Source: Bilabrum cf. latius
Taxonomy: Eukaryota
Direction: 5' to 3'
Assembly: GCA_965178125.1 (NCBI GenBank)
Contig: OZ237747.1
Span: 124,001-188,000, forward strand
DNA: 64,000 bases
The first letter of the stretch is position 1. Every line of letters begins with the position of its first letter. Below, in pieces: positions 1 through 64,000 of this stretch. Both the position numbers and the translations under genes were made by a program. The notes below the pieces were generated by a model that was given only the letters and a program-made list of their open reading frames with translations, had not been told where the DNA came from and ran no database searches.

Positions 1-2
1 CT

Positions 3-3000
3 CACCGCCGCTTCAGCCCGAGGTTCGTCTCGGTCAAGCACGCGCAGGGCCGCGTGTTTGCACTCACGAGCGGCGGCACCGTGGTCTGGTGGCCCGACGT
101 GCGGCACGCGCAGCTGGCGCGGGCCAGCAGTCGCTCTCTGTCTGGCGAGCGGGCGCCAGGGGGAGACCCCGGGGCCCGAGGGAGGGGCGGGGAAGGTGCA
201 ACGGGACATGGGGGGGAGTCCCATCGGTTCGCGTGCCGCATCGCGGGCGCGCCCCGAGTGGTGGCCAGGAAGCTGCCGCTGGCTGGCACCGCGCTGCGGG
301 TGCAGGGGCGGCCGCCCGTTGCCTGCCTGCAGCCAGGCGACTCGCTGCATGGATATCCCGTGACCACCACCTGGGCCAGCATGGCGGACGCGCCCAGAGC
401 CTTTCCCATCTCGCTGGCCGATGGGAGCCAGGGAAGACAGGAGAACACGGCGCACATATACGGGAGCCGCGGGAAGGCGGCCCTTGCTGTGTCCTAGTCT
501 TCCAGAGGGATTTCTGCCGAGGCGGCGCTGGTGCCGCTGCGGGGCACTGGCAGGGACAGGGGGGCGCAGGGAGGCGCGGGCGGGGGCCCAGCCAGGCATC
601 CGGGGCTGGAGCAGGTACCACCAGGGAGCCAGGGGGCGGGCGTGGGTGTGGCCCCTGACGGGAGCTCTCACCGTGTGTCGAGGGCAGCCACAGCGGCGGT
701 GGTGGAACACACCGGGGACGAGGCCGGTGTTGGTGTTGGGGTGGGGGAGCTGACCGGGGCGGGGCAGCGCGGGGAGAGCCCTGCTCTGGAGGAGGGGGGC
801 GTTGGCAGCGGGGCTGATGGGTCCTCTCCTCTGAAGCGGCGGTCGATCTTCGCTGGGATCGTGTCCGCAGTGGGCAGCGCGTTCGGGAGCGGGTCCAGCA
901 GTAGGAGATCGGCCGCCATCGGCCAGGCGCAGCAGTCGTCCCCTGCCCGTGCCCTCGCCGCGGCCTCGGGCTAGAGCGGGCAGGAGGGGGGGGCCGAGGA
1001 TAGCCCGAAGAGGACCCGCTCCTCGACCGGCTCGGACGCACGGCCTCCCTCGGGGCAGAGCCCGGAGGGCACTCCGGCCAGGGAACAGCGCGGAGGGCCA
1101 GGGGTAGGGTCCCGGTCTCGATCGCGAGGTGGCTCCGAGGGAGGCAGCCACTCTTCGGACGGTGGCAGAACGCCTGAACACGGGGAGAGAGAGAGGGTCC
1201 GCAGCGACGGGCAGCGGCCTCACCAGGCCGGGCGGTCACCCTCAGCTCCGTCTGCTTCCTCGATGCAGGCGGCCAGGCAGCCCGCGAGGAGACCGTGCGT
1301 AGTTCCCTGTCCCTCGCAGCCCAGCCGCTCGCTGCAGCGGGCCAACGCGCTGGTGGTGCGGGTGCGCGACATGTTCGTGGCCGGGGGCAGGCTCGGGTGC
1401 GTGGCGCAGCTCCTGTCCAGCCGCACCAGCCGACGGGTCGATCTGCTCCTGTTCGCGTTCAGCGCAAAGGAGCTGAGGGCGGCGGCCGAGGCGCCGCACG
1501 GGCACGAAGACCTGTCCCCAGGGGGCGCCGGGGGAGAGAGCGGAGCCAGCAGCTCGGTGTTTGCCGGCAGGCCCTAGCTTGATCAGTTGGAGGAGGACCA
1601 GGAGTTGGTGCTTGTGCCCTGCCACGCGACTGTGAGGCAGCCAGTGGAGCAGGGGCAGGCGCAGGGGCAGGGGTCCAGAGCGGGCGGAGGGGGATCGGGA
1701 CAGGGTGCGAGAAGGCGATGGGTGCCTGGGCAACCAGCGATCGGGAGAGCAGCAGCGGACGCTGTGGTCAGGCAGGAGGGCGAGGAGGGGTCCGTAGGCG
1801 GCGGGGGCGCGCTGATGGCGTGCAGCAAGACTATGGGCGTGCTGGTGGCAGATGCTTCTGCTCTTCGCCTGTACTGGCACGCTGACGTTATGATGGCAAG
1901 GCGCCGGAGGGACTCGCCCTCCGCTGGCGAGTCCTCCAACCAGCAGGAGGAGCAGGAAGCACGGGAACGGGGCAGAGACAGAGACAGAGACAGGGACGGG
2001 CACGCGTCCCAGAGAGCGAGGCGGCCCCGTGGCTCCGCTGTGGTCCGTAGCACTGATCAGTGGGCGGGCGCCGGTGGATCCGGACCTCCCGCCCACGACG
2101 GCCCCCCCTCGTCCTCTCCCTCGGTCTCCTCTGGCGATGGAAGAACCCGCGCACCTGGGGACCGGCAGCAGGCACCGGTGCTGGCCGCCTGCCTCCCGCG
2201 CGTGTTCCTGCCCCTCCGAAGCCTCCGGCGTCCCTCCAACGGTGGGGAGACGGTGCTGGGGCTGGACGTGGCATGCGGCACTGTGGCGGCCACCACGCTC
2301 ACAGGGGAGGCCCAGGTGTGGCAGCCCGGGTGCGACTGGGCCAGGGCGGGGGCGGAGGCACTCTGGCGAGCCTGTCTGTCAAGGGGGGCCCCGGAAGCGG
2401 CCGCGGTGAGCAGGGCGGCAGAGGCCCGGTCCCGCGGTTCCCTGGGGGCGGCCTCCGTGGGGACCCAGGCGAACGAACTCCCTCTGTGGGTGAAGCCCCC
2501 CGTGGGGAGCCGCTTTGATGCCGCTGCGGTGGTGCCGCCAGCACCAGGGGCGGGTGCCGGCGCTAGCCCGTCGGTGTGGCTGTCGCAGGTGCCCAACACC
2601 ATGCGGGCCATCCTCGCGGCACACAGGGCGCCGGCACTCCCCCGGAGCCTGCTGCCTTGGACCCGTGCCGAGGGCGCGGCCATGGCTGCCTCCCTGGCGG
2701 CCTGCAATCGTCACATGGACCGGCGCCGTGCGCTGACCTCGGACGACCCTACGATCACGGGCCGCATGTCCCTGGCCGCACTCGCCTCCCTCGCAGACAG
2801 GATCGCACTGGGGCCCGCGAGCAGCGGGGGTGGTGCGCGCGGTGGCGGCCCGAGGGCACCCCACCCGGGGGGGCAGGCCACCAGCGGGGTGGGCCGCAGG
2901 CAGAGCGCCGTGGTGCAGCAGCAGCACCAGCGGCTGGCCTCCCGGCGGCAGTCGGGCGGGTGGACTTTGCACGGGGAAGAGGACGATGTGCCGGCGGGGA

Positions 3001-6000
3001 GGCGCCCCTGGCTGCACTGGAGCCGGTGCGCGGCCCCCATCGGGCTAGAGGCCAGGCGCAGCGAGCACGAGGCCAGCGAGGCAGACGTAGGAGGGGAGCG
3101 TGGAGGTGCTGGGGGGCCTCGCGAGGGTGGTTTAGGCAGCCGGGGCGCACCCATGAGCGGACATCCCAGCTCGATCTCAGGCAGTGGTGTCGTCGCTGAC
3201 GGCCCGGGGGTGGACAGCGCCCTTCGAGAGCGCCTCACGAGGTCTGCTCACCTGGCCAGCATGTCTGCCAGCATGCTGGAGGCAGCGCGGCAGATCTATG
3301 AGAGGGTGGGGCTGGAGCCCGCGCTGCGGCCCGGCGTGTGGGCAGTGGTGCTGGACCTGAAGCTGTGCCTGCTGCGGCACGATGCTGCGCTCCGGAGGGC
3401 CCGACTGCAGAGGGCGCGGGCGAGGGCGAGGGCGCGGGGGGCATCGAGGGGGTCCCAGGGGGGCACAGGGGGGGCCGGGCCAGGTGAGCCGACTCGAGGA
3501 GGGGATGGCGGACGTGATGTTGAGGACGAGGACCAAGACCAGGGCGAGGACTAGCAGAGGGGGTCGCGGCCCATTGCCATTGGCGGGGGGAGGGAGGGGA
3601 CGAGTGCAGCGAGGCAGGCCTCCCCGTCAAAGCCGCTCTAGTCCCAGTCCCAGTCTCGATCATCGGCCTCCCCGGGCGGAAGCAGCCCGGCCCCCGCCGC
3701 GCCCCTGCACCTTTCCGGAGACGACCCCAGCAGCTCCCTGGTGCTGGGGGGCCCGCAGTTCGCGCGCCTCTCCCGAGTGGTCAGCCGCAGGGCGGAGAGA
3801 CTCGTGCTTGCCGCACAGGAGGCGCAGTCCGAGGCGCAGGAAGAGGAGCTATTTCCCGGGTCTGGGGCGGCGGCGGCGCTGTCCACCTCGGAGCGGGCCG
3901 CGGCGGCCGGCATGTCCGAGGGCGTGCTGCACTTCCTGGTGGACTGCGTGGGCATGCGGGACGCCGCAGACCCGGTCTGCGAGGCCCAGCGGCTGCTGCC
4001 CGAGGCCTTCCTCTCCTCGACCCAGGGAACGGGGTGGGGCCTCCCGGGGAGCCCCGGGCCCACGAGCCCCCTCATGCCATCGCCCCACGTGGGTCCCATG
4101 GCCCCCGCACCGGCCCTGCCGCCCCCCGCGCCCATGGCCGGCCTGGGCGTGCAGGCGCGGGCAGGCACTAGCGTGGACAGCAGCAGCACGTCGATCGCGG
4201 GCTCGAGCCTGGCCACGGGCAAGGGCACGGCCGGCAAGGGGCCTGCAGGGCTCGACGGCTGGGACGCGTTGGAGGCGGAGGGGCTGGGCGTGGGGCAAGG
4301 AGGGGCTCGTGCCGGGGCGGGGCGCAGCCAGCAGCTCGTGTCATCTATCCCTCGGGCGCAGCAGGGCGTGGTCTCCGGCGGGGGCCTGGGGGCCATGGGC
4401 ATGGGCATGGGCATGTTCGGGCTTGGCCTGGGGCTGGCAGGAGGGCAGCACACCTCTCGTCCCAAGGGCCAGTCGCCCTACAGCGCCACTGCCAGCGGGG
4501 TGCAGGACGACACCGCCCTCGCGATGAGGGTGGTGCAGATGACGAGGCAACGCATGGCCAGCGCCGCCGTGTCGGGGGCTGCGGGCCGGGGCGCAGCGGG
4601 CGACATGCGCGGGGCATGGATTAGGACGCCGACCGGCAGCCCGCAGCGGGCGAGTGCCCGGTAGCAGCAGCAGCATCAGCAGCCGCTCTCGGCCAGGGGT
4701 GCCGCGCGCCGTGTTTCCAGCGGTGGTCCTGCCGGCAGGGGTCCGCTTCGAGCAGCCCCCGAGGACCCCCTGGGGATCGGGCCCCCAAGTGGGGGACCCG
4801 GGGGTCTGCAGCGCGCCGCCACGCACTCTGCCCTGCTTGGCTCCAGGCGGCAGGGGGATCCAGAGGACGCAGCGGGGTCCAGAGCGGGGGGCGGGGGAGC
4901 CTTCGGGTGGAGGCCAGCGCTGGATCGCGGGGCCGCAGGGGAGCGGCAGGGGCCCAGGGTGGGGCTGCACCGGGGCCCAATGGGTGCCGGTGGCCTGGGC
5001 CGACTGGGTCAGTCGATGCCTGCGGACCGGCCAGGCGCGCTGCAGCGGTCCCGCGCCCTGGCAGTGATGCCCGAGTCGGTCGTCGAGGAGCATGAGGGCG
5101 AGCATGCGGACGGAGACGGGGGTGGCGGCGGCATTTAGGGTGATGTTGGCGGTGGTGTTGGCGGCTCTGGAGGACGTCTGGGTGGCGGGAGGGGGAGAGG
5201 GGGGGGGGCACTGCGGATCGGCGGTACCAGGAGCAGGACAGGCGACGGTATGTCTCCTGTAGGCAGTGCCGCGCGGGCGCAGGCCATGAGCAGCGGAAGC
5301 GAGAGCGGCAGCGAGGAGGAGGACGAGGAGGAGGAGGAGGAGGAGCACGGAGACAGGCAGAGCGACGGGAGGGCGAGCGGCAGCGAGGAGGAGGACGAGG
5401 AGGAGGAGGAGGAGGAGCACGGAGACAGGCAGAGCGACGGGAGGGCGAGCGTGGGCATGGGCAGCGGGGAGGATCAGGGGCACTAGGGTGACGAGGCAGT
5501 CGCTGGAGATGCCTCCATGCTGGAGGCGGAGGCAGAGCGGAGCACAGGTGGCGCGCTTGGGTCCAAGCACGGACCGCAGGATCAGGACGGGATGGGCACG
5601 GGGATCGGGGCGGATGACGCGACTGCCACTGCGTCTCGGCCCGGGAGAGGTGGAGTGGACGACGACGGCGCCTCGGTGGCCGCCACTGCCGTGCTGGGAC
5701 TGCAGGGACTCAGCCGGGACGATGACGGGAGCGGTGAGCTCATGCATGGCCCCGGCCCCAGTAGCAGTGGCAGCGGCAGTGGCAGGCAGGGCGCCTCTCC
5801 GCTGCGCAGGTCCGTGTCCGCACTGGGGATGGGAGACCTGGCCCGCGTGCGGGATGCCTCTGTCCGGTCTAGTGTGGAGGTACTGCGCATGCGCCGTGTG
5901 GGCGGGGGGGACGGCGACGAGGCCCTCCGTCGCATGGCCCGCACGCTGTCCGAGGACCTGCCGCGCACCTTCCGACCCATGGGTCTCTTCCACTCCCCCG

Positions 6001-6974
6001 AGTGCCCTTTCTTCGGCCGCGTGAAGAGGACACTCCTCGCCCTCGCGGTGTGGGACCCCAAGACGGGGTACGTGCAGGGCCTGCACTTCCTGGCCGCGCT
6101 CACGGCGGTGGCCACGGCCAGAGGCACGGACGCGGAGAGCTTCCGGCTGCTCGCGGTGCTGACGAGGGAGCCGGTGCTGCGGGGGCTGCTGCGCGTGGAG
6201 TTTTCCGTGTTCCAGGGGCTGTGTTCCTTGTTCGACCGCCTGCTGGCGGAGACCCAGCCTGCGCTGGCCAAGCACCTGGGGGGCCTTGGCATCACGAGCG
6301 ACCTATTCCTCTTCGCCTGGGCCTAGAGCCTGTTCCTCAAGGCACTCCCCATGCACGCCGCCCTGCACGTGGTGGACGCCTTCTTGGTGCACGGGCCCAG
6401 GGCACTCCTGGCTGCAGCCGATGCGGTGCTGCGGCAGCTCGCTGCCCTGCTGCTGCGGAGCGACTTCGAGGCGGCGCTGAGAACGCTGACAGTGGGGGCT
6501 GCGAGCCACGCGATGCTGCTGGGGGACGGGGACGGGGGGGCTGCCGCGGGGGAGGAGGACAGCCCCAGTCCCGGGGGTCACGAGTGGGCCTCGATCGACG
6601 GGGTGCTGCTGCAGGAGAGGCTGAGGTCGCTGCACCGGTGGATGCCGGGCTGGGCCGTGGACGAGCTCCGATCGATCGAGGAGAGCCAGATGCCTCACGA
6701 TGGAGCGGGTGCGGGCGCGTCCGGAGAGGGCGAAGGAGACGGGCCTGACTCGCACTGGCTCGCGGAGTTTGGGGTGCGTGTGGAGCGAGTGGTGGTGCAG
6801 GCCGCCTGCGAGGGGCTGTGGGAGGGACTAGGCGCGGGGGCTGCCGCGGGGAGGGCAGGGGGCCAGAGCAAGGCGAGTCCGGGAAAGGGACAGGGAGGAC
6901 GAGGCAGTCAGCGGGAGCCGTCGGGTGATGCGGAGACTGCAGGTCTGGACCTGATGATGGCTGCCATCTCGTGA
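3..6974 (+). CDS. Very large low-complexity protein with C-terminal TBC (Rab-GAP) domain; 5'-partial, >2,300 aa with TAG=Gln
   Basis: ORFs 54, 531, 1263, 1587, 3741, 5250, 5517 and 6351 share one frame, broken only by TAG (495, 972, 1575, 3552, 3639, 4662, 5136, 5484, 6324); ends TGA 6972-6974. TBC motifs LSEDLPRTF, GYVQGLHFLAA and FAWA[TAG]SLFLKALP...VVDAFLVHG run straight across the TAG at 6324. Confidence 0.85.
5304..5450 (+). repeat. In-frame 72-bp tandem duplication (2 x SGSEEEDEEEEEEEHGDRQSDGRA)
   Basis: Identical units start at 5304 and 5376 inside the TBC gene. Confidence 0.9.
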
Positions 6975-7072: not shown

Positions 7073-8424
7073 ATGCTGCGAATCGTCTGTCTCTTACCCG
7101 CACTTTTCATGGCGTGCATAGCCGTGGGCAACCCAATTCGCAGCCGCTACTTGTGAGAGTGCGCAATAACATGTACCTCAAGACTTTCAGACTACCTTTC
7201 TTTCCGTACGCAACAGCTATTCTATATCGTACACCTACACTGCAGCGAGTAGCTGTTTTCTTTCGGGGAAGCCCGCCGGGATTCGGCAAACGGGACCTTG
7301 GAGATGCTGTTCGGGGTGCCAGTCTTTCGAATCAATATTAAGGCATTCGGTATCGAGGAAAAAGCATTCAATCAGTAGTTAGCAGCCATTATTATGCACA
7401 ACTACAGGGAAGTTATTATAGTGAGCCGGTTGCGGTGTGGTGATCTGTCGTCTGTGCGATCTCGGAATCAAGTGCTCGCCTCGTGGTCGCTTCGATTTTC
7501 GGTGCGCAGAGATAGTCACAGGCCATCATGGAAAAAGCAAATGAGATTGAAGAAGAGGACAACATGCGACGACGGGGCCCTCCGATTGACGGATCGATGG
7601 CCTTGCCGGCCCCGCAGGCGAGGGGAGACTACTTCGGTTCGGTGCACCGCGGGCAGGCCGTGTCTAGCATCGATGACGACGAAATCGAAAGCTCCGTTGG
7701 TCTAAATAGGAGCAATGAGTCGTCTGTTGCCAATATTAATGATGCCAGCGCTCTGCCGTCTGGTGAGGACCCCACTGCCAGGCTCGGCGGCGACAGGTCC
7801 AAATTCAACGACGCTTTCTTCCACTGGCAATCCGACGGAGGGTTTCGCAAGGTATTTTCAAAGTATAGGGCCTTCAAGAAGCTAAAGTACCTGCAAGCAG
7901 TGGCCGCCGACACTTTCATGGACGCCCTGGGCTCGACCCCCATGTTTCGGGGGACTACTCGCCGCACCATGCCGGACTTGCAGTCCTGGGCCACGGTGCA
8001 CTCGGACTGCGTGTTCCATGGGCCACACAACCACGGAGAGATCCTTCTCTCCGGTGTGTACTACGTGAGGGTGCCGCCTGGGGCAGGAGACCTGCAGCTG
8101 CATGACCCGCGGGGCCCGCACGGCCCCTTTTAGACTCGGCTCAGCCTGCAGCCGAGGGCGGGCGACTTCGTGCTGTTCCCCTCTTACCTCGTGCACCAGG
8201 TACAGCCGAGCCAGTCCAGCGCGGATGATCCGCGCATCTCGGTCGCGATGAACGTGGGCGAGTCTGGCATGAACGAGCAGGACACGGTGCCCAAGGAGTT
8301 CATGGGCTGGCCCGTGCGCATGCCCACGGCCATCGAGAAGAAGGGCACCGTGGGGCGGGGCTTGCGCTCTTTGGAGGGGATGAAGGCGCTGCTGCGAGAG
8401 GGGGGCATCCCGGATGCGATGTGA
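7073..8424 (+). CDS. Putative 2OG-Fe(II) oxygenase (TIGR02466-like) with signal peptide; join(7073..7152,7246..7420,7510..8424), ~389 aa
   Basis: Hydrophobic N-terminus MLRIVCLLPALFMACIAVG; motifs LFGVPVFR, SWATVH, PHNHGEILLSGVYYV, LHDPR, FVLFPSYLVHQV, RISVAMN. Two GT-AG introns (93 and 89 nt) restore the frame. In-frame TAG at 7250, 7376, 7513, 8131; stop TGA. Confidence 0.8.
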
Positions 8425-8731: not shown

Positions 8732-11700
8732 ATGGGATAGGGTGTTGCTGTGCCAGGACAGCCGGGTGGTTCGAGTCAGTCAGGTGGGAGCCAGGCCCCG
8801 CATGGCTCGTAGCAACCACCGTCGGGGCCGCAATCGGCCCCATCAGACGCTCAAGGCTTGGTAGGCGACATGATCATGCGAATAAGTGCGGACATGCGGC
8901 CGCCGCGCGCTCGTAGATAGACGAGTGGCCCACCACCAGGCGGCGCTGCTGCAGATTTAGATGCCATGTTGCAATCGCGTGTGGAGCGCTTGGAGCGTTC
9001 GCGTAAGTGGCAAGTTGATTGTGCAGGTAATTATATTGCTTTAAGTACTTAGCTTTGGAGGTATGTATGTACATGAGCCGCTTCATTCCCACCGCAGGTG
9101 CCAGACGAGGTTCGGGTCGGCGCTCGCCTGGTCTCGGCGGCAGCGACGACGAGAGAGCGGCTCGCCGTAGAGGGAGCAGCTTGCGGGGCCCGACTGCGGA
9201 ACACGCAGACTCTGAGGGCTGGGTTCTTGTAGCCCCAGGAGACGAGGAAAGACCTCAGGAGGGTGGCAGTTCAGCGGCCAGGGGCCCACCAGCTGAGTTT
9301 GGCGGGCGCGGGCGTCGCCGGAGCCGAGGCGGGAGTAGCTCGGAGAGGGGGCGCGGGGGTGGTCGCGGACGCGACCGTAGGGACCGCGGGGGCCTCGTTG
9401 TGGAGGAGGCCGGTTCTGACCCTGGGGCCGGTCGTGAGGGCAGCGGCAGGGGCAGGGGCAGGGGCGGTGGACGCAGAGAGAGACGAGGGAGTAGAGGTGG
9501 TACGCGGGGTCGATACAAGCCGCCAGGGCGCGGCCGTGTGCGATTTGAACGTGCCCCGTCTTCATCATAGACTCGAGCTGCCCTCCTGCAGTCGATCCAA
9601 TCGAGGGAGTTAGAGTCGCCTTGGGCAGGTGGGGCCAGCGGCGGTGAGGAGGAGGAGGAGGAGGAAGCGGGGCAAGGAGAAGAAGAGGACCCAGCGGCGG
9701 TGCGGCGCGCAGCTCGCAGGGCAGAGCGCCTCCGCAGGGAACAGGAGCGCGCGGCCCGGAGGCAGGCCGCGGAGGCCCGCGCCAAGGCCCGGGCAGTTGC
9801 GAGGGCGGGCCGAGAGAGGGTAGAGAGGGACGCTCAGGAGGCAGAGGCGCGCATGCGTCGTGAGAGAGAGCACGAGCGGGCAGCTGCACTCCGCGCCGCT
9901 CTCTCCTCTCGGGTGGGCTCGCGCTCGGGCTCGGGCTCGGGTTCGGGTCCGAGTCACCGGCCCAACCCCGGGGAGGGCTTCCGTGAGTTCATGGAGCGCA
10001 TGCAGGCCATGCGTGCGGGGAGTGGGTCTGGGTCTGGGTCTGGGTCCGACGGGAGCGGTGCTTCAAGGAATAGCGAGGACGACGGTGGCATGGCCAGTCA
10101 GCTGCGGCGGGCCATGGAGAGGCACCATGGCAGTAGGGGCGGGGGCATCGGCAGCAGGCACGCGGCAGCCATCGCGGCGTAGGAGCAGGCGATGCTGGCG
10201 CAGGCGCTGGCGGCATCTGCCCGGGAGGCAGGCACCTCTGTGGACCTGTCTTCCCTGGGGGGGCGGGGCCAGGGCGGGCGGCCTCCTCGGCTGCCCGGCA
10301 TGATGGCGCAGGAGCGGGTGCTGGGTCGGCTGCAGGCCAGCAACTCGGGGCTCATGGGCCTCTTCGGCGGGCCGTCCTCGCCCACCGCAGTGGGCCCCGG
10401 GGCGCACCCCTCCTCCCGGGACGGAGCCCCATTGGGCGAGCTGGCCACTTTCACCCGCAGCGGGGTGGCGGTCAAGGGGAGCCCGGCGGCCACGAGGTCC
10501 AGGGGCCGCAAGGACGGGCCCTCCCCCGCGGCCAGCACCGCTGCGTCCGTCGGTGTGGATGCACTGGGCGGGGATCAGGCGGGTGCTGGAGGGGACGATG
10601 AGTCGGCGGAGGACGCCGTGTGGCTGAAGCGCATGCACTCGGACGGTGTGTGGCGCTGGGAGCGGTACGTGGATGCCGAGGAAAACGGGGACGAGGACGT
10701 GGACGGGGGGAGCGGGGAGGATGCCAAGGGAGAGGATTCGAGCGGGGCTGGGTCTGGGGCGGGGACAACAACCAGCGGAGGAGGAGGAGGAAGCTCACCT
10801 GACAGCACAGACCCCACAGGGGCTGCAGCCGTACTGGCAGCGGGGTACGTGCGCGGCATCCGCGCGGACGGGACGCTCTGCTGGGTCCCTGCCGACGAGT
10901 ACGGCGCCTTTCAGGCGGCCGAGTACGAGAAGGCGAGGGAGGGAGCGAGCGAGGGGGGGGCGGCAAAGGCCAAGGCCGCGGGAGGAGCTGCCGCAGGCGG
11001 GGCGGGGGCGGGCATGTCGGCGGAGGAAGCGGCAGCGGCGGCCCGGTCAGCTGCCCTGCCCACCCCTGCGACGATGGTGCGGCAGGAGAGCGTGGAGCGC
11101 AAGATGAGCGGCATCTCGAGCTCCAGCTTCGACCGAGCGGCCTCACTTCGGTTCGAGGACAAGGTGTCCTGGTTCCGGCGGCAGGTGCAGCAGCTGCGGA
11201 TCAAGTACGAGGATGGGCGCATCGAGGTGCACGCGGACAGGGAGAGGCCGCTGCAGTCCGTGTTCGAGCGATTCAGGAGCCTGGCCCCGCGGGACATGCG
11301 CCGGACCTTCCGGGTCAAGTACAAGGGCGAGAAGGGGGAGGACGCGGGGGGGCTCCTGCGGGAGATGATGACCCAGGCCAGCGCAACGCTGTTCGACGTG
11401 AGCTCCGGACTGTTCACGCAGACGGGTGCGGCGGGACAGGCGTACTGGATCAACCCGCAGTCGCAGTTCGCGAACCCGTCTCACCTGGAGTACTTCTACT
11501 TCGCGGGGCGACTCATCGGTAAGGCGTTGCTGGACGGTGTGCTGATCCAGCCTCGGCTGAGCCCCGTGCTGCACAAGCACATCCTGGGGATCCCCGTGAG
11601 CCTCTCTGACATGGAGAGGGAGGACAGCGCGCTCTTCCGCAGCATGGTGAACGTGCTACGGATGGACCCTGACGACCTCGAGTACCTCTGTCTGACCATG

Positions 11701-12330
11701 AGCTTCGACGAGGAGGTATTCGGGCAGAGGAGCAACGTCCCCCTGGTGCCTGGGGGTGCGGACATCGAGGTGGACGGGTCCAACCGAGCGCAGTACGTGC
11801 AGCTGCGGCTGAGGCACCGGCTGGTGGATTCCATCGCGAGGCAGCTGAGCCACATGCTGGCGGGCATCTACGAGATCGTGCCCGAGCGGCTTCTAGCCGT
11901 GTTTGACCACGTCGAGCTGGACCTGCTGCTCAGCGGGCTGCCCACCGTGGACGTGTCTGACTGGAAGGCACACACCAAGTACGACAAGTGCGCGGCCAGC
12001 TCCAAGCACGTGCAGTGGTTCTGGGAAGAGGTGGAGGCCATGGACGGGGCGGAGCGAGCCAAGCTGCTGCAGATCGCCACGGGGTCCTCCCGCGCCCCTG
12101 CTGGCGGTTTCGCCCGCATGACCAGCTACGACAACAAGCCGTGCAAGTTCACCATCCGCAGCTCGGGGGAGCCGATCGGCGAGGGGGCGGCGGCTGTGCC
12201 ATTCCCGACTTTCTCGACGTGCTACTTGCGCTGCTACCTGCCCGTGTACAGAACCAGGGAACAGCTGAGGGAGAGGCTCCGGGGCACGCTCAAGCTGGAG
12301 ATCCGCAAGGCGGCCTTCACGGAGGACTGA
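8732..12330 (+). CDS. HECT-domain E3 ubiquitin ligase; join(8732..9002,9098..12330), ~1,167 aa
   Basis: HECT motifs VKYKGEKGEDAGGLLRE, YFYFAGRLIGKAL, VQWFWE, LLQIATGSSRAP, catalytic region PTFSTCY, C-terminal FTED-TGA. Intron 9003-9097 (GTAAGT...CGCAG). In-frame TAG at 8738, 8810, 8918, 9568, 10180. UIM-like [TAG]EQAMLAQALAASA. Confidence 0.88.
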
Positions 12331-21246: not shown

Positions 21247-21300
21247 ACCGCATTCGTGCGAACCCCTGCGGGCTATAACTCAGCTACTAGTACTACCTGC

Positions 21301-52513: not shown

Positions 52514-54604
52514 TTATCGAATTGAGCACAACTTAACGAGGTCCGCGAACGTCATGAGCGGCTCCTCCACTTTCACGCCCCCAAGTGTCCCCTCGCCTGA
52601 CCGCGGACTGCCTGCCGCTGTTCCGCTTGGGACCGCCCCCACCTCCTCGATGGCGGCCTGCGAGGCCCAGCGGCGGGCCAGCTACATCGCCTGGGGCAAG
52701 GTCACCGGGGGCAAACAGCCCGCTCTCCTCAGCCCCCATGCAAGTTCCGCAGCCGTGATCGCGCGGCGCCCCCCCCGGTCCATATCCCGGAACTGCTCCC
52801 TCAGCGAGAGGGGGTATGCGCCCAGGGACGAGGCGGCCCGCCGACGCAACTCCTAGTCGTGCCCCCCTGCTGCAGCCTAAGCACCTCCTCTATCTCCTGA
52901 GAGCAATTGCGCCGCCGCTGACGCTCTAGTGCCCCTTGCATCAGCCCAATCGTGGCCGAGGGAGCCTGAGTGCCCAGCCCCAGCCCCAGCCCCAGCCCCA
53001 GCCCCTGCGGCACGAAGCAGCTAGCTCGCGGTTGCAACCGCCCCACCATCCCTTGTCAGCTCACCAACCTCCCGCGCGAGGGCCTCTGCTTGTTCCCTGG
53101 AGGCGACCACGCCGTGCCTCCGCAGAATGTCCACCAGCTGGCCCGCCGTGGCCCGGCGGACCCCGCGGCTGTCAGCACTCGTCACATCGGCAAACGCCCG
53201 TCGCAGCGAGTCGCCTGTTGCACGGATAGCCAGAGCCTGCAGCAGGCCGGTCAAAGCCGTATCTGCACCGGCACGGTCTGCCTGTGCACCTTCCGCAGGT
53301 GGAGTCGGCGCGCTGGCGGGCTCCACTGGCGGTTGCAAACTAAGAGGCAAGCTTTCATTTGCGCCTGTGCCGGTTTCTGCTACTTTCTGCCGCTTCCATG
53401 TAGGGCCATCTGCGTTGCTTGTGCTTGGAGGTGGAACCGCGACGGCAGGACCCCATCGACCCCATCCTCGCCCGCTCGCCTCGGCCGGTCCCTACTCGGG
53501 CACAGCCTGCTGCATGAACCGGTTTAGCTCGCCGGGGGTGAGCAGCAGCAAGGGCACATCACCATAACCGGAATCTAAACCTTGTTCCCTCCCGGTCTCG
53601 GCCCGATCGAAGGGTGCCGAGAGGGTGCCACTGCCGCTGCTGCTGCTGCTGCCCCCGCCGGCAGTCGGCAGCTGTGGCGGCACGGCAGCACCCGACCCCC
53701 TCGGCAGCTGTGTCTTGGCGGAAGGAGTATAGGGCACGAGTATTCGAGCGAGGTCATGCAAATCGACCTGGCGGTGCATTCCCTCTCTCCGTAGACCGGC
53801 GGCCAGGTCCTCGAGAGAGAGGCGGGCATCGCTCCGGCGGCTGTACGAGAAGAAGACCTCCGCCGAGCTCGCATAGTGGCCCCGGAGCACCGACAGGACC
53901 TCGTCCAGCACGCCCGAGAGCTCTGCATCCTGCTCTCTGCGGGCACGAGCCCTAGACCGGATGGCATGGGACGACGTCTCTGAGCCCTTGGCGATGCGGC
54001 CTTCGCAGGTGTGGTACCGGCCCTCGAGCGCGCCGGTTAGTCCTGCGCACAGCTCCGTGTAATCGATTGCGCCTGCTGCTTGGGAGCTATACTTCTGCTG
54101 CATGGCCACTACTTCAGATGGCTACAGAAAAACGCCCGCATTTTGGGCGACATACGCGAAACAGCCTGCCGTCACGTGCCCAACCGACCTCTTGTCCACC
54201 CGTCTAAATGCTCGCGATGCTGTGGAGCCGAGACGGTCGTGCATTCCCATCCCAATAGCAACTTCTAGTGCGTAGATTTCTTGCTCACACAACCCCCTGC
54301 TGGCCTGTGAGCTTCGTTCCGGCGGCGAAAGCGTGTCAACTGCAACTGCCTGCAGCTTCAGGCCAGCCCCAGGCGCTCCACGAGAGTTATCCAGTTCGGT
54401 TCCAAGGCTCATATTTGTAGCAGGAAGTGACACAGGAAAATCAATTCGCGGTGCTGCAGAGCTTGCGATGAGTCGTAGCAGCCTCGACAGACAAGACCTG
54501 ATTTCTCGCGCAAGTATATGCGATTGCTCTGGGGTGATGTGGTACCGAGCGAGATCTCGCCGGAATCTAGTAAACTCCAGAACAAGTGGAGCATCGACAG
54601 ACAT
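52514..54604 (-). CDS. Multi-EF-hand-like (degenerate) protein, ~696 aa
   Basis: Segments AFRRVDKRSVGHVTAGCF, GAIDYTELC, LSLEDLAAGLRREG, LRRAFADV, LREQFRDMDRGGRRAITAAELAWGLRRAG. One frame with TAG at 54122, 53492, 53021, 52877, 52853, 52682; ends TAA 52514-52516. Confidence 0.65.
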
Positions 54605-55082
54605 GCGTACCGACTGCTGCAGCAGGCGACGCGGAGATTGGCAGGCCGATGGCACTCCGGTAGTGTGATCATGTTGCGACCGAGTGACTGGCAGATATGC
54701 ATGCCGCGGGGTGGCTGCAGGAGGCAGTCGGAGTGCATTGGTAGGCGATGCGTCAACACAGATGTTCGAAAGTATAATTGGACAACTTGAATCAAGCTCT
54801 CCCCAAGGGCACTTGGCCGGGGGTATACAGCCAGGCCGGCTGCGGTAGTCCGTTGCCTCGTGGCTGGGCCTAAACGAAACGTGCATGCTGCATCCTGCAA
54901 CCCGATGGCCCGCGAGTGTGACCTGCAGCAATGCACTTGAACGGATCATTCGAATCCTCCATCAAATAGACCCAGTCCCAGGCGGCGACCGCTTCATGCC
55001 GACCCGTCTGCCCCTTGTCACTCGTCCTGCTCGTCGCTTGCGGCAGACCAGAACCAGGCAAGTGCCCCGTGGGCGCGCATTA

Positions 55083-56396: not shown

Positions 56397-57362
56397 TCAA
56401 TCGCCGCACTCGTTGGCAGCCGGAAGGCTCTGCACCCCGTCCAAGCTCACGCTCCCTGAGCCATCAGGGGATTCATTCTCGCTCGATGCATCTTCCACTG
56501 GCCCGCCTGCAGAAACCTCCTCTTCCTCCCCTTCTTTTCCCCCTTCTCCTCCTCCCTCCCCCTCCAGTACCAGTGGAGCAACCCCCTCATCCAGCGACGT
56601 CCCAGGCTCACTCTCATTTTCACCTTCACTCTCACCCTCATCCTCACTCTCATCCTTGGCAGTTCCGCTGCCATCCGCTGCACTTCCCCGCTCCCCACGG
56701 GCCGCTACTGCTGCCTTCAGCTTCCCTAGCCGGGCCGCGGCGGTTGTCGCGTCCACGCACCAGCACACGGCCACACCCGACAACAACAGCAGCAGCGGCA
56801 GCGACACCATCAGCGAGATGAAGGCCCCGCCCTCGTCGCAGTAGGGCTACGACGCCAGCTTCTAGGTATGCTGCCTGCATGCATCGTTCAGCACAGGTGC
56901 CGCCAGAATGGTTGCCGCCAAAGCTAGAAACAGGACTGTTTGCGCCGTCGGCATGCGAATCAGGGCCACAGCCAGGGCGAGGATGACAACGTGGAAGACC
57001 AAGATACAAATAATGAACGGTTCCGTCCAATCGATGGCATGAATAAATGCCATAGCCTCGTCATACACGCCAGTCGTCGGTCCCTGATTGGAGAGCTTGA
57101 TGCCGTCCGGAGCACCTTGCATAATGTCTATCCCGGCGGGAATGCCAGGCACTGGCTACCCGTTATTTCTTCCAACGTCCGCTTTACGAGCCTGTATCAC
57201 ACCTGAAGGTACGAATGCCTGGAACAGAGCAGCTTTGGCCTCTTCATGCGCCTACGAGAGCGCATCCATCCAAGAGCTCGCTTCGGAGCCCCCATCCGCT
57301 GCGCTCGCCGCGACAGCAACACACGCGACGAGCAAGTATGGACTCATCCACCATCGAAGCAT
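56397..57362 (-). CDS. TMEM18-like membrane protein, ~321 aa
   Basis: AFIHAIDWTEPFI..ILVFH, LN...HT[TAG]KLAS[TAG]PYCDEGGAFISLMVSLPLL, matching the TMEM18 pattern DWxEP...QxYxDxxGxFIS. TAG at 57252, 57156, 56862, 56847; stop TGA. Confidence 0.8.
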
Positions 57363-57497
57363 GATTTGCGACGCCACGCTACGACTGTGCGGCAAATAGA
57401 ATCAATCGAAATGAACTTCTCGTTCGGCTGACGCATTAAACCGGAACCGCTACCACGCGCCTGAGCAACCTGAAAGAAGAATAGATCTAGTACTGGC

Positions 57498-60400
57498 TCA
57501 ATACGCACCCCGGTATCCCAGGTGCGATCCAGCACCGTGGCCCGCATGGCTCGCCAGGCTGGCAGTGCTGCTGGCCGCCGCACCGCCTCCCACCCCGCCA
57601 TTGCCACGGCCGGGCCCCATCTTCGAGCTGCCCACCCAACCCCTCCCCCTCCCCCTCCCTGCCTCTGCATCGCCACCTGCCCTGGTCGGGGCTCGGCCTG
57701 GGGCCAGTCCGAACCCCCTGGGCTACGAGTGGCGCGCTGCATCCACCGCTTGCCCCTCGCCCGAGCCTTGCTCTCCCCCCCTCCACCCCCGCCCCATGGC
57801 GCCTGTGGCACCACCACCGCCAGGGCCCGCGGGAGCTCGCTGCCCACCCACGGGCACGGGCATGCCAGAATTCCCCGCGCCTTGCGAACCAGAGCCAGCG
57901 ATGCCGCTGCGCCCAGACCGAGATGGAGTGTAGCCGTTGTGCCCAGGCTCCGCCACGGCACCGCGCACACGCCCCCCTTCACCTTCACCTTCCTCGTCCT
58001 CCCGCGGGTCCGTCTGCTGCTTCCTGCTCGGACTCAGGCTCGGGCTCGGGCTCCTTGCGGCCAGCACGCCCTCAGAGAACAACGAGCGATCCCTCTCTGA
58101 CAATGCCCACAGCTCGATCGACAGCGACACGGGCACACGAGCGGTACCACCGCGCGATGCACCCTCACCCCCACCCTCACCCTCCACCTCCACCTCCACG
58201 GCGGCCTCCAGCAGGACACCCCACTGGAAGGCAGCCTCCAGCCCGGCCCACGAAGAGGCAGCGGCACCGGGCGTGTCTCTGCTCTTTCTGCCGGCCTGTC
58301 TCTCGAGGAAGGACTCGGTCAGCCCTCCGGCCCCCTCGATGGCCGCCAGTCGAGAGAGACCCGCCAGCGGGAGCTGCCCGCGCACTGCCTTGCCGCCATC
58401 GCGCCCGGGCTCCTCCTCGGCACTCCAGCGCAGCACAGCCCCTGCCCCCGCCCCTGCCCCTGCAGAGCCAGAGCCATCTGCCACCGACACGCGCACCACC
58501 CTGGGTTGCTTGCTTCCGTCCTTGCGACCGAGGGGCGTGGACAGGGAGAGTCCGAAGGTTCGCCGCGCCGCCTTGGCTGCAGCCTTGCTCTTGCACCTCA
58601 CGCGGTAGTCGGTGCAAGCCATGAGCATACCGCCACGCATTGACCTCAAGGCCCCGGCCTCCGCTGAGTCCTCGCGCCCGACTAGTGCACCGCCGTCCCC
58701 ATCTCCAGTAGGCTGCTACCAGCCCAGCGCGCCACCATCGGCAGCAGGACCTGCTCCAGCCTGTGCTCGGCTGCTCGATCCGGGACTCAAGCCCTCGGGT
58801 CCCCCGCTCTCTCCACGCACCTTCCCCAGCGCCCCATCCCCCAGCCCGCCGCCGTGCACAGACTGCCTGGAGCCGTTCATGATTGCCTCCGAGGCAGCCT
58901 TCACGTTGGCCTCGATGGCTCGCAGGGCGCTGAGCACATCTCCCGCCGGGCTAGAGGGGCCTGTCTCCGCACCGCTGCCGGTGGTGCTGGGTCCCGCTGT
59001 CCCCCCCCCATGTCTCGAGGGAGTGCCCCCCCTAGGAGCATGGTCCCAGGGCAGCTCGGGCGCATGTGCCCCTGAGTGCCCCTCCTCCCCATGCTTGACG
59101 TGCTGCCCACGCGCAGGTGCAGGTGCATATTTGCTCCCTGGTGACGGCTCGCCCGCGCGTTTGGAGCGGGGAGAGGACACCGGAGAAGGAGACCAGGGCA
59201 GCGGGGATGCCCCGCGCTCGCTCGCCTACCGACCCCGGCTGTCGATTCCTCGGCGGCTCCCCGGTGTCTGAGCCTGGGCCTGTGCCCTGTCCCTGGCTCT
59301 CGCCTACCTGTTCGCCTTGATGCGTCGGAGCTGTTCCCTGAGCGCCCTCTCCTCCTCGCCCTCCTCGTCGTCGTCCTCATACTCGTCCGGACCTGCCCCT
59401 GCCCCTGCCCCTGCCCCTCGCTGCTCCATCATCGATGCATCAGGGCTGCCGCGCGACAGTGCACCGCTCCAGTCACGGCGCGACAATCGCTGTTCCTCCT
59501 CGGCAGAGCTGGGCCCCCACGGCCCCCGCCCGAGCTCCCTCTACCTCTCCCCGTCCCGCGCTCCGTGGTTATGCGCGAAGGACACCCCGGGAGAGGTGAA
59601 TGAGCCGAGGATGTCGCCCTCATCTTCGCCCTCGTCTGCGTCTTCACCGTCGCCTCCACCCTCGCCCATCCCCCCGAAGGCCCCCCCTCGAGATGCAGCT
59701 CCCGCCCCCCTCGAGCCCCGTGTCCCCGTCCCCGTCTCCCTCCTCGTCCTCCTGCCAGCCCCCCTCGCCCTCCCGGCGTCCGACTCCGTCGCATCCAGAG
59801 CAGACAGCGAGGCACCCAGGGACAGCTGCTCCGCCCGCGCTGCCCTCTCCTGCTCCTGGGCCTTCCTCAGCCTCAGGACCCTCAGCGCATCCGAAGGGGA
59901 CGCGCCCATGGAGGCCTCGCCCTCCCTCAGCGCCTCGTGCACGCGCCGCGCCGTAGCCGCGTCCTCGTCCTCACCCTCGCCCTCGTACTCGAGGTGGTCC
60001 GCGCCCGACACCCCCGCTCGGCGGTCCGATCTGCTGCCGGCCCGCCGCGACCGCGACCGCGACCTGGATCTCTAGCCTATCCCGGCCACTCGCTGCAGGA
60101 AATCTGCCGCGTCGTCGGGGCTGCTGGGGAACACGAGGAAGGTGTCTCCGAGCGGGGACACCGCGGCTGCTGCTGGGGAAGCAATGCCCAGGGCACCTTG
60201 CAGCCGGGCGTACCCCGCCGCTGAAGGGTGTGACGAGTGGACCACGGAAGCGGTGCCTGCCCCGTTCGGCTGCTGCTGCTGCTGATACTGCGGATGGTGC
60301 TGCGGATGGTGCTGAGCGTGGGGATGCTGTGCAGACGGGTCACCCCCGCGCGTACCCCACGGCCCTGTTTGGCTGGCAGAGTCACCCGCCCACAGGCCAG

Positions 60401-62015
60401 ACGCAGCCCCCACTGACAGTGCAGACGAGCCCCCAGCCTGGGGCACGAGCCCCGGGGTACCCCCCGGGCGATAACCAGGCTACCAGCTGCCGTGCACTTG
60501 CCCCTGCCCCTGCCCCTGCACCTGCAGAGGCCCACCAACAGCTGCACTGCCCGCATCGAAGGCAGACCCCACACTGGTGCCTCCTGCACCGCCTGTTCCC
60601 ACCCAGCTCCCGTGCGGCGAGCTTCCCTGCAGCGTCCCCGGCCCAACTCCACCATGGGGCACGTGCACCCTCAGGTTGCTGGTGCTGACTCCCTGACCGT
60701 TCTCCCCTGCACCAGCAGCAGCAGCAGCAGCAGCAGCCGGCCCTTGGCCTTGCAGGAACATGGGCTGCCAGGCACCGCCGGGCTGGCTCGAGGGCTAAAG
60801 CCGCTGCTGACCCTGACCCTGACCCTGACCCTGACCCTGCTCGTGTTGCTGTTGCTGCAGCATTGCGGAGGGAACAGGGACCATGACCCGCTCTCCACTG
60901 GCCGTGGTCGTGGGAACCATCACGTGCCCGGGCGGCAACTGGAACGAACCGTCGTGCGATGCACCTGGGGACGCAGATGGCTTCACCGTTGCTGGATCCT
61001 AGGTTGGGTTGCGCACCGCCGGCGGCTTGCTAGCCGGGGCGAGGGGGCCCATGGGCTCCTCGCTGCCGGCCTGATTCTGTCCCTGTCCTTGCGCCTGCGC
61101 CTGCGGGGTGCCCGGGCCCAGCACGGGGGGGGCCTAGCCGGCCGGAGGGGGGGGTGCTGCGGTGCTCCCCCCCCCTGCGGGCTACCACTGAGGAGCGGCG
61201 TCCTGCGCGGCTGGTACCGGCGCTGGCGTGGGCTTGCCCCCAGGAGGGGGTCCCTTGCCCCCCGGTGGCTTCCCGCGCTTGGGGGCGGACCCAGGCGGCT
61301 TGCCCTTGCCCTTGCCTTTCTTCTTGCCCTTCGGCTTGGGCTTGGACTTTCCACGGCCTGCCTTCTTGCCAGACAGACCGTCGGCCCCGGCCTCACCTCC
61401 CTTCCGCGATCGCTTGGAGCCCTTCGTCTTCCTGGGCGCCGGGGTTGGGGCGGGGCCGCCGTCGGAGTCATCGTCGCTGCTGCTCGCGGGGGGCATCCCG
61501 TCCGAGTCGGAGTCGGAGTCCATGCCAGCTAGCTTCAGCAATCCACCACCACCCATGGCATTCGCACCCGCTCCAAACAGATTGGCCTTGCCGTCTGCCT
61601 TGCCTGTGATGAGTCGGCTCGCATCCGTGTCAGCTTTCGGCGCCGGCGCAGGAGCGGGTGCTGGCGCTGGCGCTCCAAAAGAGATGGCCGGGGCATCATC
61701 CCCGAAGTCAAGCAATGGGGGCCCATCTTCCGTAAAGTCCAGAGTCCCCACTGGATCAGCAGCCGGAGCCTCGGCAGGCGTCTCATCTTCCTTCGGCTTG
61801 TCTGGCTTCTTGCTGCTACCAAAGAGACCAAATCCCCACCCACGAGACTTTTTTGCATCTGCCTATGCCTAATCTTTCTTTGCCTGCGCCTCGCTTGCTT
61901 TTGCGAGCGACGCCGCGTACCCACTAGTGTTTTGCTAGGCCGGTGCAGGCGCCGGGGCATCGCCACCAAAGGAAGGGGCATCATCCGTAAAATCCAGCAT
62001 GCCGAAATCCGACAT
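57498..62015 (-). CDS. Large low-complexity protein of unknown function with possible C-terminal PH-like domain, ~1,505 aa
   Basis: Eight ORF fragments in one frame joined by ~14 TAG; ATG 62015 preceded by an in-frame TGA; stop TGA 57498-57500. Segment VLRWS...RGQLPLAGL...LSIELWALSERDRSLFSEGV is PH-like (weak). Confidence 0.6.
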
Positions 62016-62210
62016 GAAAACTCACTTATCCTTTAGAGAGCTGCTTTGGTCTCGGCACCAAAAGCCAGCAAGTGTGGCTGGTCGGGAATGGGGTGGTTCG
62101 TTCAGCTCTTGGGTTCCTTCTAGGTTCGTTGGGTTCGCTCGCTTCTGTGCGACCGGTTGCGACCGCATGATAGAGGCGAGCACGATTCTAAGCCTGGCAT
62201 ACTGAGCGCT

Positions 62211-62717: not shown

Positions 62718-62910
62718 ATATGCAATATTGGTCGACTGTAGGGGCATCGATAGATTCAAGAGGTCTTTGCAGCGCCGAAGGACGTCTCGTTGGCTGTAGG
62801 GAAGACTCGAGAGGACGAGCAACGATTGACACTGCGACTGAGACATCGTGGCTGAGTACTCTGCGTATTGATCATAGTGTGATATTAATGTCCTTTTATA
62901 TGCAAACAGG

Positions 62911-64000
62911 TCATGAGCCCCCGGCACCCCCTTTAGCTGCGCCACTGCCAGCCGATCCGGATGCGCCTTTCCCCCCGCGGAAGACTCTGAGACTGAACAC
63001 GTCGAAGGCGTTCACTACTATATGCACGTCGCCAGCCGCGTCCTTATGGAATTGTACGCCAGTCAAAGGGTGGTCGGACACTTCGCATCGGAAGGCCACG
63101 CTCAGCTTGACGCTGCCATCCGCGGCGGGGTCCACCCTCCATACGAGCAGGACGGCGTCCTCTGAAGTGGTCGCAAAAAGGGGCTCGCTGGGGTGTGACG
63201 TCACCGCTGTCACACACCTGCAGTGTGCATCGGCCTTGGCCAGCAGCTTGCCCCGCTTTGCACATGCCACGCGCACCTGCCCCGCGACGTCGGCCACCAG
63301 CAGCGTGCTCCCTTGCAGCGCCACCCCGGCGGCAGGCGCCCCCGTCGGGCTCTTGATGGACGCCAGCACAGAAGGGTGTCCGGCATCTACCATATTCCAG
63401 ATCGCCAAGGTGCCATCCTCGTCGCAAGACGCCAGCAGCTGCTGCCCCGACCCGTCCGTACCAGCTGCAATGCCAACCACTGGAGCCTCGTGACCGCCAG
63501 CCAATACCCGCTGCTGCTTAATCACCGGGGCTTCCCCGTCGCCAAATGCAACGGAAAACTCGAATACGCTGCCTGTGGAAGAGCCAATGTAGATCAAGCC
63601 AGCAGAGGCGTTGTACGCGATGCCGGCGCAGAATGCCGCGCGCCGGCCGCTCGCACCAGTCAAGCTTGCAGGAATAACGAAGGAGTGCGCAAGTCTGCTA
63701 TTGAGCCAAAACTATGCACCCTGGGACATCGCAACGACAAGGATGTTCTTGCCCCCGATCGGACAGAAGCACGTTTGGGAGACACCGCCTCTGTGCGGAG
63801 ACGACGGCAGTTTCGTAGAAGAGGCTGTTCGGCTCTCGTCCCCGATGTGCTCGCTCGAAATTTTGTGAACCTAATTGTCATGCACGAATGCCTGCGGTCG
63901 GTGCCATTGAATCAACTCAGCGCAGATTGCCTGTATGCGGCAGCGTGACTACAGTTGCACAGGTGGATTGACCCGACTTACCAGCTCTGAGTCCGATATT
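62911..64000 (-). CDS. WD40-repeat protein, WDR54-like; 5'-partial, intron 63892..63981
   Basis: ILVVAMSQGA[TAG]FW, AFCAGIA, IYIGSSTGSV, GHEAPV, LASCDEDGTLAIW, AHCRCVTAV, FATTSEDAVLLVW. TAG at 63871 and 63712; 90-nt GTAAG...CGCAG intron; stop TGA. Confidence 0.75.

Follow-up and report, generated by a model that had tools for sequence, protein, structure and literature searches.

Genes of the window are open across TAG

The DNA analysed here, referred to throughout as the window, is a stretch of 64,000 nucleotides from contig OZ237747.1 of assembly GCA_965178125.1 (positions 124,001 to 188,000 of the forward strand), deposited as Bilabrum cf. latius. Its genes run through the triplet TAG, and we predict for it a variant nuclear code in which UAG stands for glutamine and the stops are UAA and UGA. 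G+C content is 64.5% over the window (60.5% to 72.8% across 4-kb steps) and about 80% at the third codon positions of its genes. Read with the standard code, the window has stop-to-stop frames of at most 1456 amino acids (aa), the next longest being 715 and 661 aa. Treating TAG alone as sense gives longest frames of 3677, 2467, 2323, 2086 and 1507 aa. Treating TAA as sense brings no gain in the top frame lengths; treating TGA as sense makes frames longer in general but takes none beyond 1456 aa, and this general lengthening is expected, as TGA is the commonest stop triplet of GC-rich DNA. Counted on both strands and in all frames, the stop triplets number 278 (TAA), 677 (TAG) and 1383 (TGA).

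Eighteen gene-sized frames, bounded by TAA and TGA only and comprising about 24,000 codons in total, were set on both strands. TAG occurs in frame 94 times in this set, and TAA and TGA never do. At least one TAG occurs in 16 of the 18 (the genes for bifunctional FolD and for an ATG27-like protein have none), and 87 of the 94 are preceded by an ATG in their own frame. Splicing adds three TAG, one in exon 1 of the histidinol dehydrogenase (HisD) gene and two in exon 1 of a gene for a gamma-tubulin-complex-like protein (GCP), and removes one, which lies in the HisD intron. A Pfam family was assigned to 15 of the 18 frames, the ATG27-like match being weak; the GCP match fell short of the Pfam threshold, and the other two frames matched no family. 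There are 17 TAG within the best Pfam stretch of ten proteins (TBC, 2-oxoglutarate oxygenase, Band7, WW, GH55-like, short-chain dehydrogenase (SDR), GCP, the Helicase_C part of SNF2, TMEM18 and WDR54), or 13 TAG in nine proteins without the WW protein, for which the range was set by hand (4 TAG in the WW region). If UAG is counted as a glutamine codon, its share is about 11% (94 TAG against 738 CAG and CAA together).

The first part of the window holds five genes on the plus strand. A RabGAP-TBC protein (3..6974; Pfam PF00566, E = 1.7e-25), whose 5' end is open at the window edge, has nine in-frame TAG, one of them (6324) inside the TBC domain, and ends in TGA. The 2-oxoglutarate-Fe(II) oxygenase (7444..8424; PF13759, E = 2.6e-18) has two, one in the domain (8131) and one before the first ATG, and the HECT ubiquitin ligase (9031..12330; PF00632, E = 5.9e-71, profile matched to 295/306) also has two, both in its N-terminal low-complexity part; both genes end in TGA. 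The sulphur transport protein of YeeE/YedE type (12476..13849; PF04143) has a single TAG, at 12515, which is upstream of the first ATG and probably lies in the 5' untranslated region. FolD (13952..15214; PF02882 and PF00763) is free of TAG and ends in TGA.

The middle of the window holds genes on both strands, and it is here that introns were found. On the minus strand, an SPFH/Band7 protein (15458..16767; PF01145) has one GT-AG intron at about 16303-16399 and two coding TAG, at 16112 and 15566. The neighbouring gene, also on the minus strand, encodes a monofunctional HisD (17048..18861; PF00815, E = 2.8e-122) and has one GT-AG intron at about 18226-18550; its coding TAG is at 18618-18620 in exon 1, and a further TAG at 18302 is intronic. 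A minus-strand protein with three WW domains (18898..21279; PF00397 in three stretches) has eight in-frame TAG and ends in TGA. The ATG27-like membrane protein (21884..23270, plus strand; weak match to PF09451) has one GT-AG intron (22361-22496) and a coding part without TAG. A secreted GH55-like glycosidase (23551..25728, minus strand; PF12708, with matches to GH55 structures in the PDB) has four TAG, at 25525, 25378, 25294 and 24268, and ends in TGA. The SDR (25687..26865, plus strand; PF13561/PF00106) has three TAG, two of them in the domain, and its profile is matched to 235/236 just before a terminal TAA. The GCP gene (26900..33475, start approximate, plus strand; weak match to PF04130) has a GT-AG intron at 27207-27297, 13 TAG in its long exon and two in exon 1, and a terminal TGA.

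The remaining genes are all on the minus strand. An SNF2-family helicase of 2467 codons (33669..41072; PF00176 and PF00271) has 12 TAG, 10 of which follow the first ATG, and ends in TGA. It is followed by a membrane protein of 3677 codons with two class III cyclase domains (41140..52173; PF00211, E = 6.1e-91, two stretches), here called the cyclase, with 10 TAG and a terminal TGA. Its two cyclase domains are about 2500 low-complexity residues apart, and the frame appears to be free of introns. An 815-codon frame with no Pfam family (52514..54961) has six TAG and ends in TAA, and a TMEM18 protein (56397..57401; PF14770, E = 4.7e-25) has four TAG, two within the domain, and ends in TGA. A low-complexity frame of 1507 codons (57498..62021), again with no Pfam family, has 14 TAG and ends in TGA. 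Finally, a WDR54-like WD40 protein (62911..63999; PF21031, E = 8.6e-11) runs off the end of the window and has three TAG, one in the matched part.

An initial annotation, made from the letters of the window, had counted about 98 TAG in 16 of some 20 genes, which is essentially right (94 in 16 of 18 frames in the present count). It had also placed TAG inside conserved domains of seven proteins. This stands for SNF2, SDR, TBC, WW, GCP and GH55-like; for HisD it needs correction, in that the TAG of the unspliced frame is intronic and the coding TAG lies in exon 1. Its description of a GC-rich nuclear genome agrees with the 64.5% G+C, the GT-AG introns and the eukaryotic gene families seen here: the window comes from the nucleus of a protist whose genome is GC-rich and poor in introns.

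Relatives carry TAG codons of their own

Sequences related to the genes of the window were found among public proteins and in metagenomes. An exhaustive protein search returned fragments of GH55-like relatives that are 58-96% identical to the window protein. Two of these fragments end exactly at window TAG sites 117 and 145, and the GCP fragment of one relative ends at window TAG site 1674. Evidently, to judge from these end points, the relatives' proteins were cut at TAG codons of their own by gene calling under the standard code.

A metagenome scan gave three contigs (L001-L003) of 55-56% GC, with SNF2 proteins about 52% identical overall to that of the window. One of them, L002, also encodes the C-terminal 849 aa of the cyclase, 73% identical to the window's. 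The frames of these contigs (849-1216 codons) have 11, 8, 19 and 6 TAG. The relatives carry their own TAG at other positions, and cyclase position 3672 is TAG in both. A comparison of the minus-strand frame of L002 with the window GCP gave no match; this frame is the cyclase homologue. The pattern points to the use of UAG for glutamine as a trait common to several related lineages, metagenomic ones included.

The gene order of L002 differs from that of the window. In the window, the 3' end of the cyclase gene abuts the 5' end of the SNF2 gene, with both on the minus strand, and in L002 (positions 1-6306) the two genes are convergent, 3' to 3', which implies an inversion between the two lineages. 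Six further metagenome loci (L004-L009) match only residues 531-675 of the SNF2 query (its Helicase_C part), at 33-36% identity. They are read as unrelated SNF2-type helicases that were picked up by one peptide pattern.

UAA and UGA as stop codons

The terminal codon is TGA in 16 of the 18 frames and TAA in the other two. C-termini were verified for seven genes, by Pfam coverage for HECT, SDR, HisD and FolD, and by relatives for GH55-like, SNF2 and the cyclase. None of the seven has TAG as its stop; TGA or TAA is used in each. In the cyclase, the TAG at site 3672, which is 5 codons before the stop, is TAG in the relative too; conserved residues follow it, and the stop is at the same position. 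This stop is TGA in the window and TAA in L002, where it comes after the conserved tail with the shared TAG.

The C-termini bear on two alternatives to a code in which UAG is always sense. UAG could be dual, encoding glutamine inside genes and acting as a stop near the 3' end of some mRNAs, in a context-dependent code. Such codes exist for other codons in Condylostoma and Blastocrithidia. As all TAG are read through here, a gene that ended in TAG would go unnoticed, and several frames do have a TAG 5-75 codons before their TGA or TAA. However, the TAG closest to a stop, that of the cyclase, is shared with the relative and is followed by conserved residues and a common stop position, and none of the seven verified C-termini is at a TAG. 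A dual UAG is thus unlikely, if the least so of the alternatives considered.

Alternatively, UAG and UAA could both encode glutamine, with UGA as the sole stop (NCBI table 6) and UAA being scarce as a result of the roughly 80% G+C at third codon positions. The excess of TGA at the ends of frames is in keeping with this, as is the rarity of TAA, the least frequent stop triplet in the window. Moreover, reassignments of both UAR codons (UAA and UAG) are described as far commoner than those of UAG only in the part of PMC5304391 drawn on here. If the ratio of TAA to TAG followed that of CAA to CAG (110:628), however, about 16 in-frame TAA would be expected, whereas none was observed. This zero carries weight because the frames are complete by domain coverage and by comparison with relatives. 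The frames of the relatives also have no TAA and no TGA, despite their 55-56% GC and CAA:CAG ratios of 0.3-0.65. In addition, TAA closes the SDR gene right after a Pfam match that reaches 235/236, and it closes the relative's cyclase gene at the point that corresponds to the C-terminus in the window; TAA as sense lengthens none of the top frames. We consider a table 6 code very unlikely, and rank it just behind a dual UAG. The data favour a code in which both UAA and UGA terminate, UAA more rarely.

TAG codons in transcripts

A search of sequencing runs gave 15 matching runs from nine studies, and four runs from four studies were compared over positions 12400-32399 of the window. One of these (X1) had even cover and no joints over this interval, as for DNA. 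Two others (X5 and X7), from two other studies and with other organism labels, gave contigs with GT..AG joints on the coding strand. In both runs, position 16302 was joined to 16400 (Band7), 18225 to 18551 (HisD) and 22360 to 22497 (ATG27-like); the joint of 27206 to 27298 (GCP) was found in X5 only. Although these two runs are not on record as RNA, we take them to be transcripts because they have GT-AG spliced joints, which the DNA run lacks.

No differing letters were listed in any of the four runs. Contigs of X5 cover 18 coding TAG with no other letters at these sites: two in Band7, the one in HisD exon 1, eight in the WW protein, four in GH55-like and three in GCP. A single contig (19438-21099) spans all eight TAG of the WW protein, and all four of GH55-like are likewise spanned by a contig. 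As TAG is unchanged in spliced transcript contigs, assembly error, editing to CAG and intron retention are removed as explanations.

Two side observations came from the runs. The FolD and ATG27-like genes, both without coding TAG, are in bins of high transcript-contig depth. Avoidance of UAG in highly expressed genes, which has reportedly been seen in the rhizarian exLh, would fit this, but contig depth is a poor measure of expression and the observation is only a hint. A run with another organism label (X6) gave short, high-depth pieces of 90-95% likeness in the FolD and HisD region (14450-17900), joined over large gaps. These look like conserved parts of other organisms' genes and not variants of the window locus.

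The residue at UAG

The residue encoded by UAG was estimated by comparison with close relatives in both directions (residues of relatives opposite a TAG of the window, and residues of the window opposite a TAG of a relative), with L001-L003 counted as one relative. This gave 43 informative sites in SNF2, the cyclase, GH55-like and GCP, at which the residues were Q (18), R (6), S (4), E (3), A (3), G (2), H (2), L (2), and V, K and N (1 each). In a well-aligned context (at least 5 of 10 flanking columns identical), Q was opposite TAG at 16 of 27 sites, in agreement with a Q-Q conservation of 0.62 in the same alignments. Using substitution frequencies from these alignments (5549 aligned pairs), Gln had the best log-likelihood. 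Arg and His came next and were 34-40 nats worse, Glu was 42-46 nats worse, and Leu was 97-120 nats worse. Both of the sites that face L (2/43) are in a poorly aligned context.

Individual proteins show the same trend. In GH55-like relatives that are 65-95% identical, Q is present at three of the four TAG sites, 68 (in two relatives), 117 and 145; the fourth, 487, has G. Fragments of GCP relatives (80-97% identical) have Q, R and R at three TAG sites. In the reverse direction, TAG codons of a relative face the Gln of 'DDQGLGKT' (motif I) and that of 'HRLGQ' (motif VI) in the SNF2 protein of the window, the latter a residue that we take to be near-invariant in SNF2 helicases.

A reading of UAG as Leu was raised by eye from motifs in TBC and in SNF2 (the stretch after motif VI), and was rejected by the likelihood over close relatives.

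UAG as a predicted glutamine codon

Taken together, the data make it highly probable that UAG encodes Gln in this genome and that translation stops at UAA and UGA. The initial annotation had proposed that UAG is sense, and its presence in spliced transcripts and inside conserved domains upholds this. Its choice of Gln is favoured by the 43 sites compared with close relatives, where Gln leads in likelihood by 34 nats or more; these sites include the relative's TAG at the motif VI Gln. Its view that TAG alone is changed agrees with the lack of in-frame TAA, with the two frames that end in TAA and with the TAA at the end of the relative's cyclase; and its identification of the code as NCBI table 15 is correct in that table 15 reads TAG as Q. 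It had further pointed to RNA and to homologue alignments as places where the codon could be checked. The 18 coding TAG in contigs of the spliced run, with no CAG among them, bear it out for RNA, at the level of contigs and not of raw reads. The alignments bear it out in part: close relatives are consistent with Gln, and the columns of distant homologues are mixed.

Mechanistically, UAG would be decoded by a glutamine transfer RNA (tRNA) with anticodon CUA, which could arise from tRNA-Gln(CUG) by one anticodon change. Such a tRNA would be expected to pair with UAG but not with UAA. The release factor eRF1 would have lost efficient recognition of UAG and kept that of UAA and UGA. A CUA tRNA with an altered eRF1 is the mechanism proposed for other UAG-only lineages in the section of PMC5304391 used here.

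Several results weigh against UAG as a dedicated Gln codon. The first group concerns the residue. At 25 of the 43 close-relative sites, TAG faces a residue other than Q; this is expected at 52-80% identity and leaves single sites open. The six columns of distant homologues that were tallied (two in SNF2, three in GH55-like, one in HisD) do not single out Q, and a rough hand sum puts Q about level with D. Q is the majority at SNF2 residue 1575 (62/97) and the commonest residue at GH55-like site 68 (12/47), and it follows G at GH55-like site 117 (G 43/141, Q 30/141). At GH55-like site 145, R dominates (58/140, with Q at 6/140); at SNF2 residue 1646, L does (55/120, with Q at 3/120); and the column of the HisD exon-1 TAG has D (63) and E (20) but Q in none of 109 homologues. 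PDB alignments of SDR and GH55-like gave few and mixed columns: one SDR site had K, K and Q, and the others fell in loops. A context classifier (residues within 4 positions, with held-out validation) did not discriminate, as it gave H, Q, V, R, S, A, T and L scores that spanned no more than 2.6 log units.

The second group concerns the runs, the stops and the decoding machinery. All four runs compared are assembled contigs, which drop rare variants, and not raw reads. The count of zero in-frame TAA is partly built in, as the frames were bounded by TAA and TGA. UAG as a terminator was judged only through the conserved C-termini of seven genes. Neither the window nor L001-L003 contained a tRNA at the Rfam gathering score or any other Rfam family, and there was no eRF1 gene within the window or the metagenome loci.

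ARAGORN called a single tRNA in the window, a 94-base tRNA-Thr (GGT) at 61180-61273 on the plus strand, antisense inside the 1507-codon frame. This call, which is without Rfam support, is probably false.

The mixed columns could be read as a sign that UAG encodes a different amino acid, for example Leu (the case in the rhizarian exLh), Glu, Ser or Tyr. The L at SNF2 1646 and the D or E in 83 of 109 homologues at the HisD site fit this, and so does the consensus of the TBC domain around its TAG, which we read as Leu. At SNF2 1646, however, the closer relative has Q, and the 43 close-relative sites place Arg and His, Glu, and above all Leu well below Gln in likelihood; a residue other than Gln is highly improbable. 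That the TAG are untranslated, through assembly or sequencing errors, editing of mRNA to CAG, retained introns or pseudogenes, is the default suspicion for in-frame stops but has no data point in its favour, and we discount it almost entirely given the identical letters in four runs from four studies (spliced transcript contigs among them), the restriction to one of three stop triplets, the frames that run on for as many as 3677 codons and have conserved counterparts in relatives (52-98% identical), and the relatives' own TAG at other positions.

Placement of the organism

The organism was placed by a single gene, HisD; the window has no ribosomal RNA. The four closest relatives of HisD exon 2 are 98, 98, 90 and 71% identical. 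Matches with a name are 61-69% identical and almost all are from stramenopiles: Cafeteria roenbergensis (68%), Bicosoecida sp. CB-2014 (67%), Ectocarpus, Ascophyllum, Phytophthora, Pythium, Saprolegnia, Hondaea and Tribonema. The matches from outside this group are one dinoflagellate record, one cryptophyte and one metagenome-assembled genome (MAG) of Planctomycetota. In a FastTree phylogeny of 121 HisD rows, the window groups with three relatives (support 100), and this group is nested in a clade of 18 rows that also includes Cafeteria (SH-like support 99). In a quick IQ-TREE run on 33 selected rows, the window clade falls between the Cafeteria clade and the rest, with SH-like support of 93-95. 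These trees suggest that the organism is a stramenopile, which we regard as likely, and its position is probably, if tentatively, near the bicosoecids and Cafeteria.

Other genes of the window were uninformative in this respect. The best named matches of SNF2 are from fungi, plants and a mollusc, at 38-40% identity over a quarter of the query, and a protein-cluster search with FolD gave only bacterial FolD clusters. An aphelid origin (Amoeboaphelidium, in which both UAR codons are Gln) was considered, prompted by the fungal top matches of SNF2, and was set aside in view of the grouping of HisD with stramenopiles, the monofunctional HisD and UAA not being sense.

Comparison with known codes

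Reassignment of UAG only, to Gln, is known from Iotanema spirale (Fornicata), Protocruzia tuzeti and two lineages of phyllopharyngean ciliates; UAG is Leu in a rhizarian and some ciliates, and Ser in Scotinosphaera; and UAR is Gln in many ciliates, Ulvophyceae, Hexamita, Streblomastix and Amoeboaphelidium (all as given in the portion of PMC11687900 drawn on here). The predicted code of the window is the same as that of Iotanema (table 15), with UAG as Gln and UAA and UGA as stops, and both cases draw on one type of evidence, UAG in frame where conserved proteins have Gln (PMC5304391 and PMC11687900, each in part). In contrast to the Iotanema type, HisD here groups with stramenopiles, G+C is 64.5% overall with about 80% at third codon positions, the main stop is UGA rather than UAA, and the trait is common to several related lineages.

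The UAR-to-Gln code (table 6), found in hexamitids and Amoeboaphelidium protococcarum among others, shares UAG as Gln, and its suppressor derived from tRNA-Gln(CUG) is presumed to have the same origin here (PMC5304391, in part). It differs from the present case in the use of UAA, which here is absent in frame and is present at conserved C-termini. The code of the rhizarian exLh, in which UAG is Leu, resembles that of the window, as do those of chlorophycean and chytrid mitochondria, in that only UAG is reassigned and UAA and UGA are stops (PMC5304391, in part). It differs in the residue, as Leu is far behind Gln here, and in its gene ends, which are mostly UAA in exLh (56/71; same source) and mostly UGA in the window (16/18).

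Cafeteria roenbergensis is the nearest named organism by HisD and falls in a neighbouring clade; its HisD is predicted at full length under the standard code. The genome of this heterotrophic stramenopile has about 70% GC and 1.7-1.9 introns per gene, and in the parts of the genome paper drawn on here a non-standard code is mentioned only for the mitochondrion, where UGA is Trp (PMC6972860). The G+C content and intron density of this genome fit those of the window. Neither open-access full text nor the part used of a 2024 stramenopile review yielded any mention of an altered nuclear code in stramenopiles or bicosoecids, in a search that did not cover subscription journals and supplements. The matching sequencing runs date from 2025, and a published description may exist or be in preparation; whether the change is so far undescribed for this lineage is, in our estimate, evenly balanced. 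The codon table itself is of a known kind, that of Iotanema, and what is notable is the lineage, the spread through a clade and the GC-rich setting.

Implications of the predicted code

A broader reading, to which we give about an even chance, is that this is the first nuclear code change in stramenopiles: a whole GC-rich clade of bicosoecid-like, heterotrophic flagellates, some of them uncultured and known only from metagenomes, would read UAG as Gln and keep UAA and UGA as stops, and this change would have arisen under GC pressure. Such an origin would be the opposite of the AT-driven codon loss that is usually invoked before the capture of a stop codon, because GC pressure should deplete UAA before UAG. 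Nuclear codes that split UAG from UAA are few, and those named in the part of PMC11687900 used here are Iotanema, Protocruzia, some phyllopharyngean ciliates, a rhizarian and Scotinosphaera. An additional, independent origin, on a supergroup branch new to this list and against a GC-rich background, would put ideas on stop capture to the test, setting the disappearance of a codon by mutation pressure against an ambiguous intermediate with a suppressor tRNA. As the trait is common to relatives, these could also serve to date the change and to trace the matching changes in tRNA and eRF1.

The predicted code has practical consequences as well. Gene callers that use the standard code split these genes, and in public records the GH55-like and GCP proteins of relatives are fragments cut off at TAG. 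For this group, such broken gene calls affect annotation, orthology and metagenome binning.

The GH55-like gene has a history that may be separate from that of its host. Its nearest named full-length homologues are bacterial (MAGs of Planctomycetota and a Puniceicoccaceae bacterium), at 35-38% identity; homologues with names being bacterial, the gene is uninformative on the host lineage. With its four TAG and its transcription, it may be an old transfer from bacteria that was later adapted to the code of the host.

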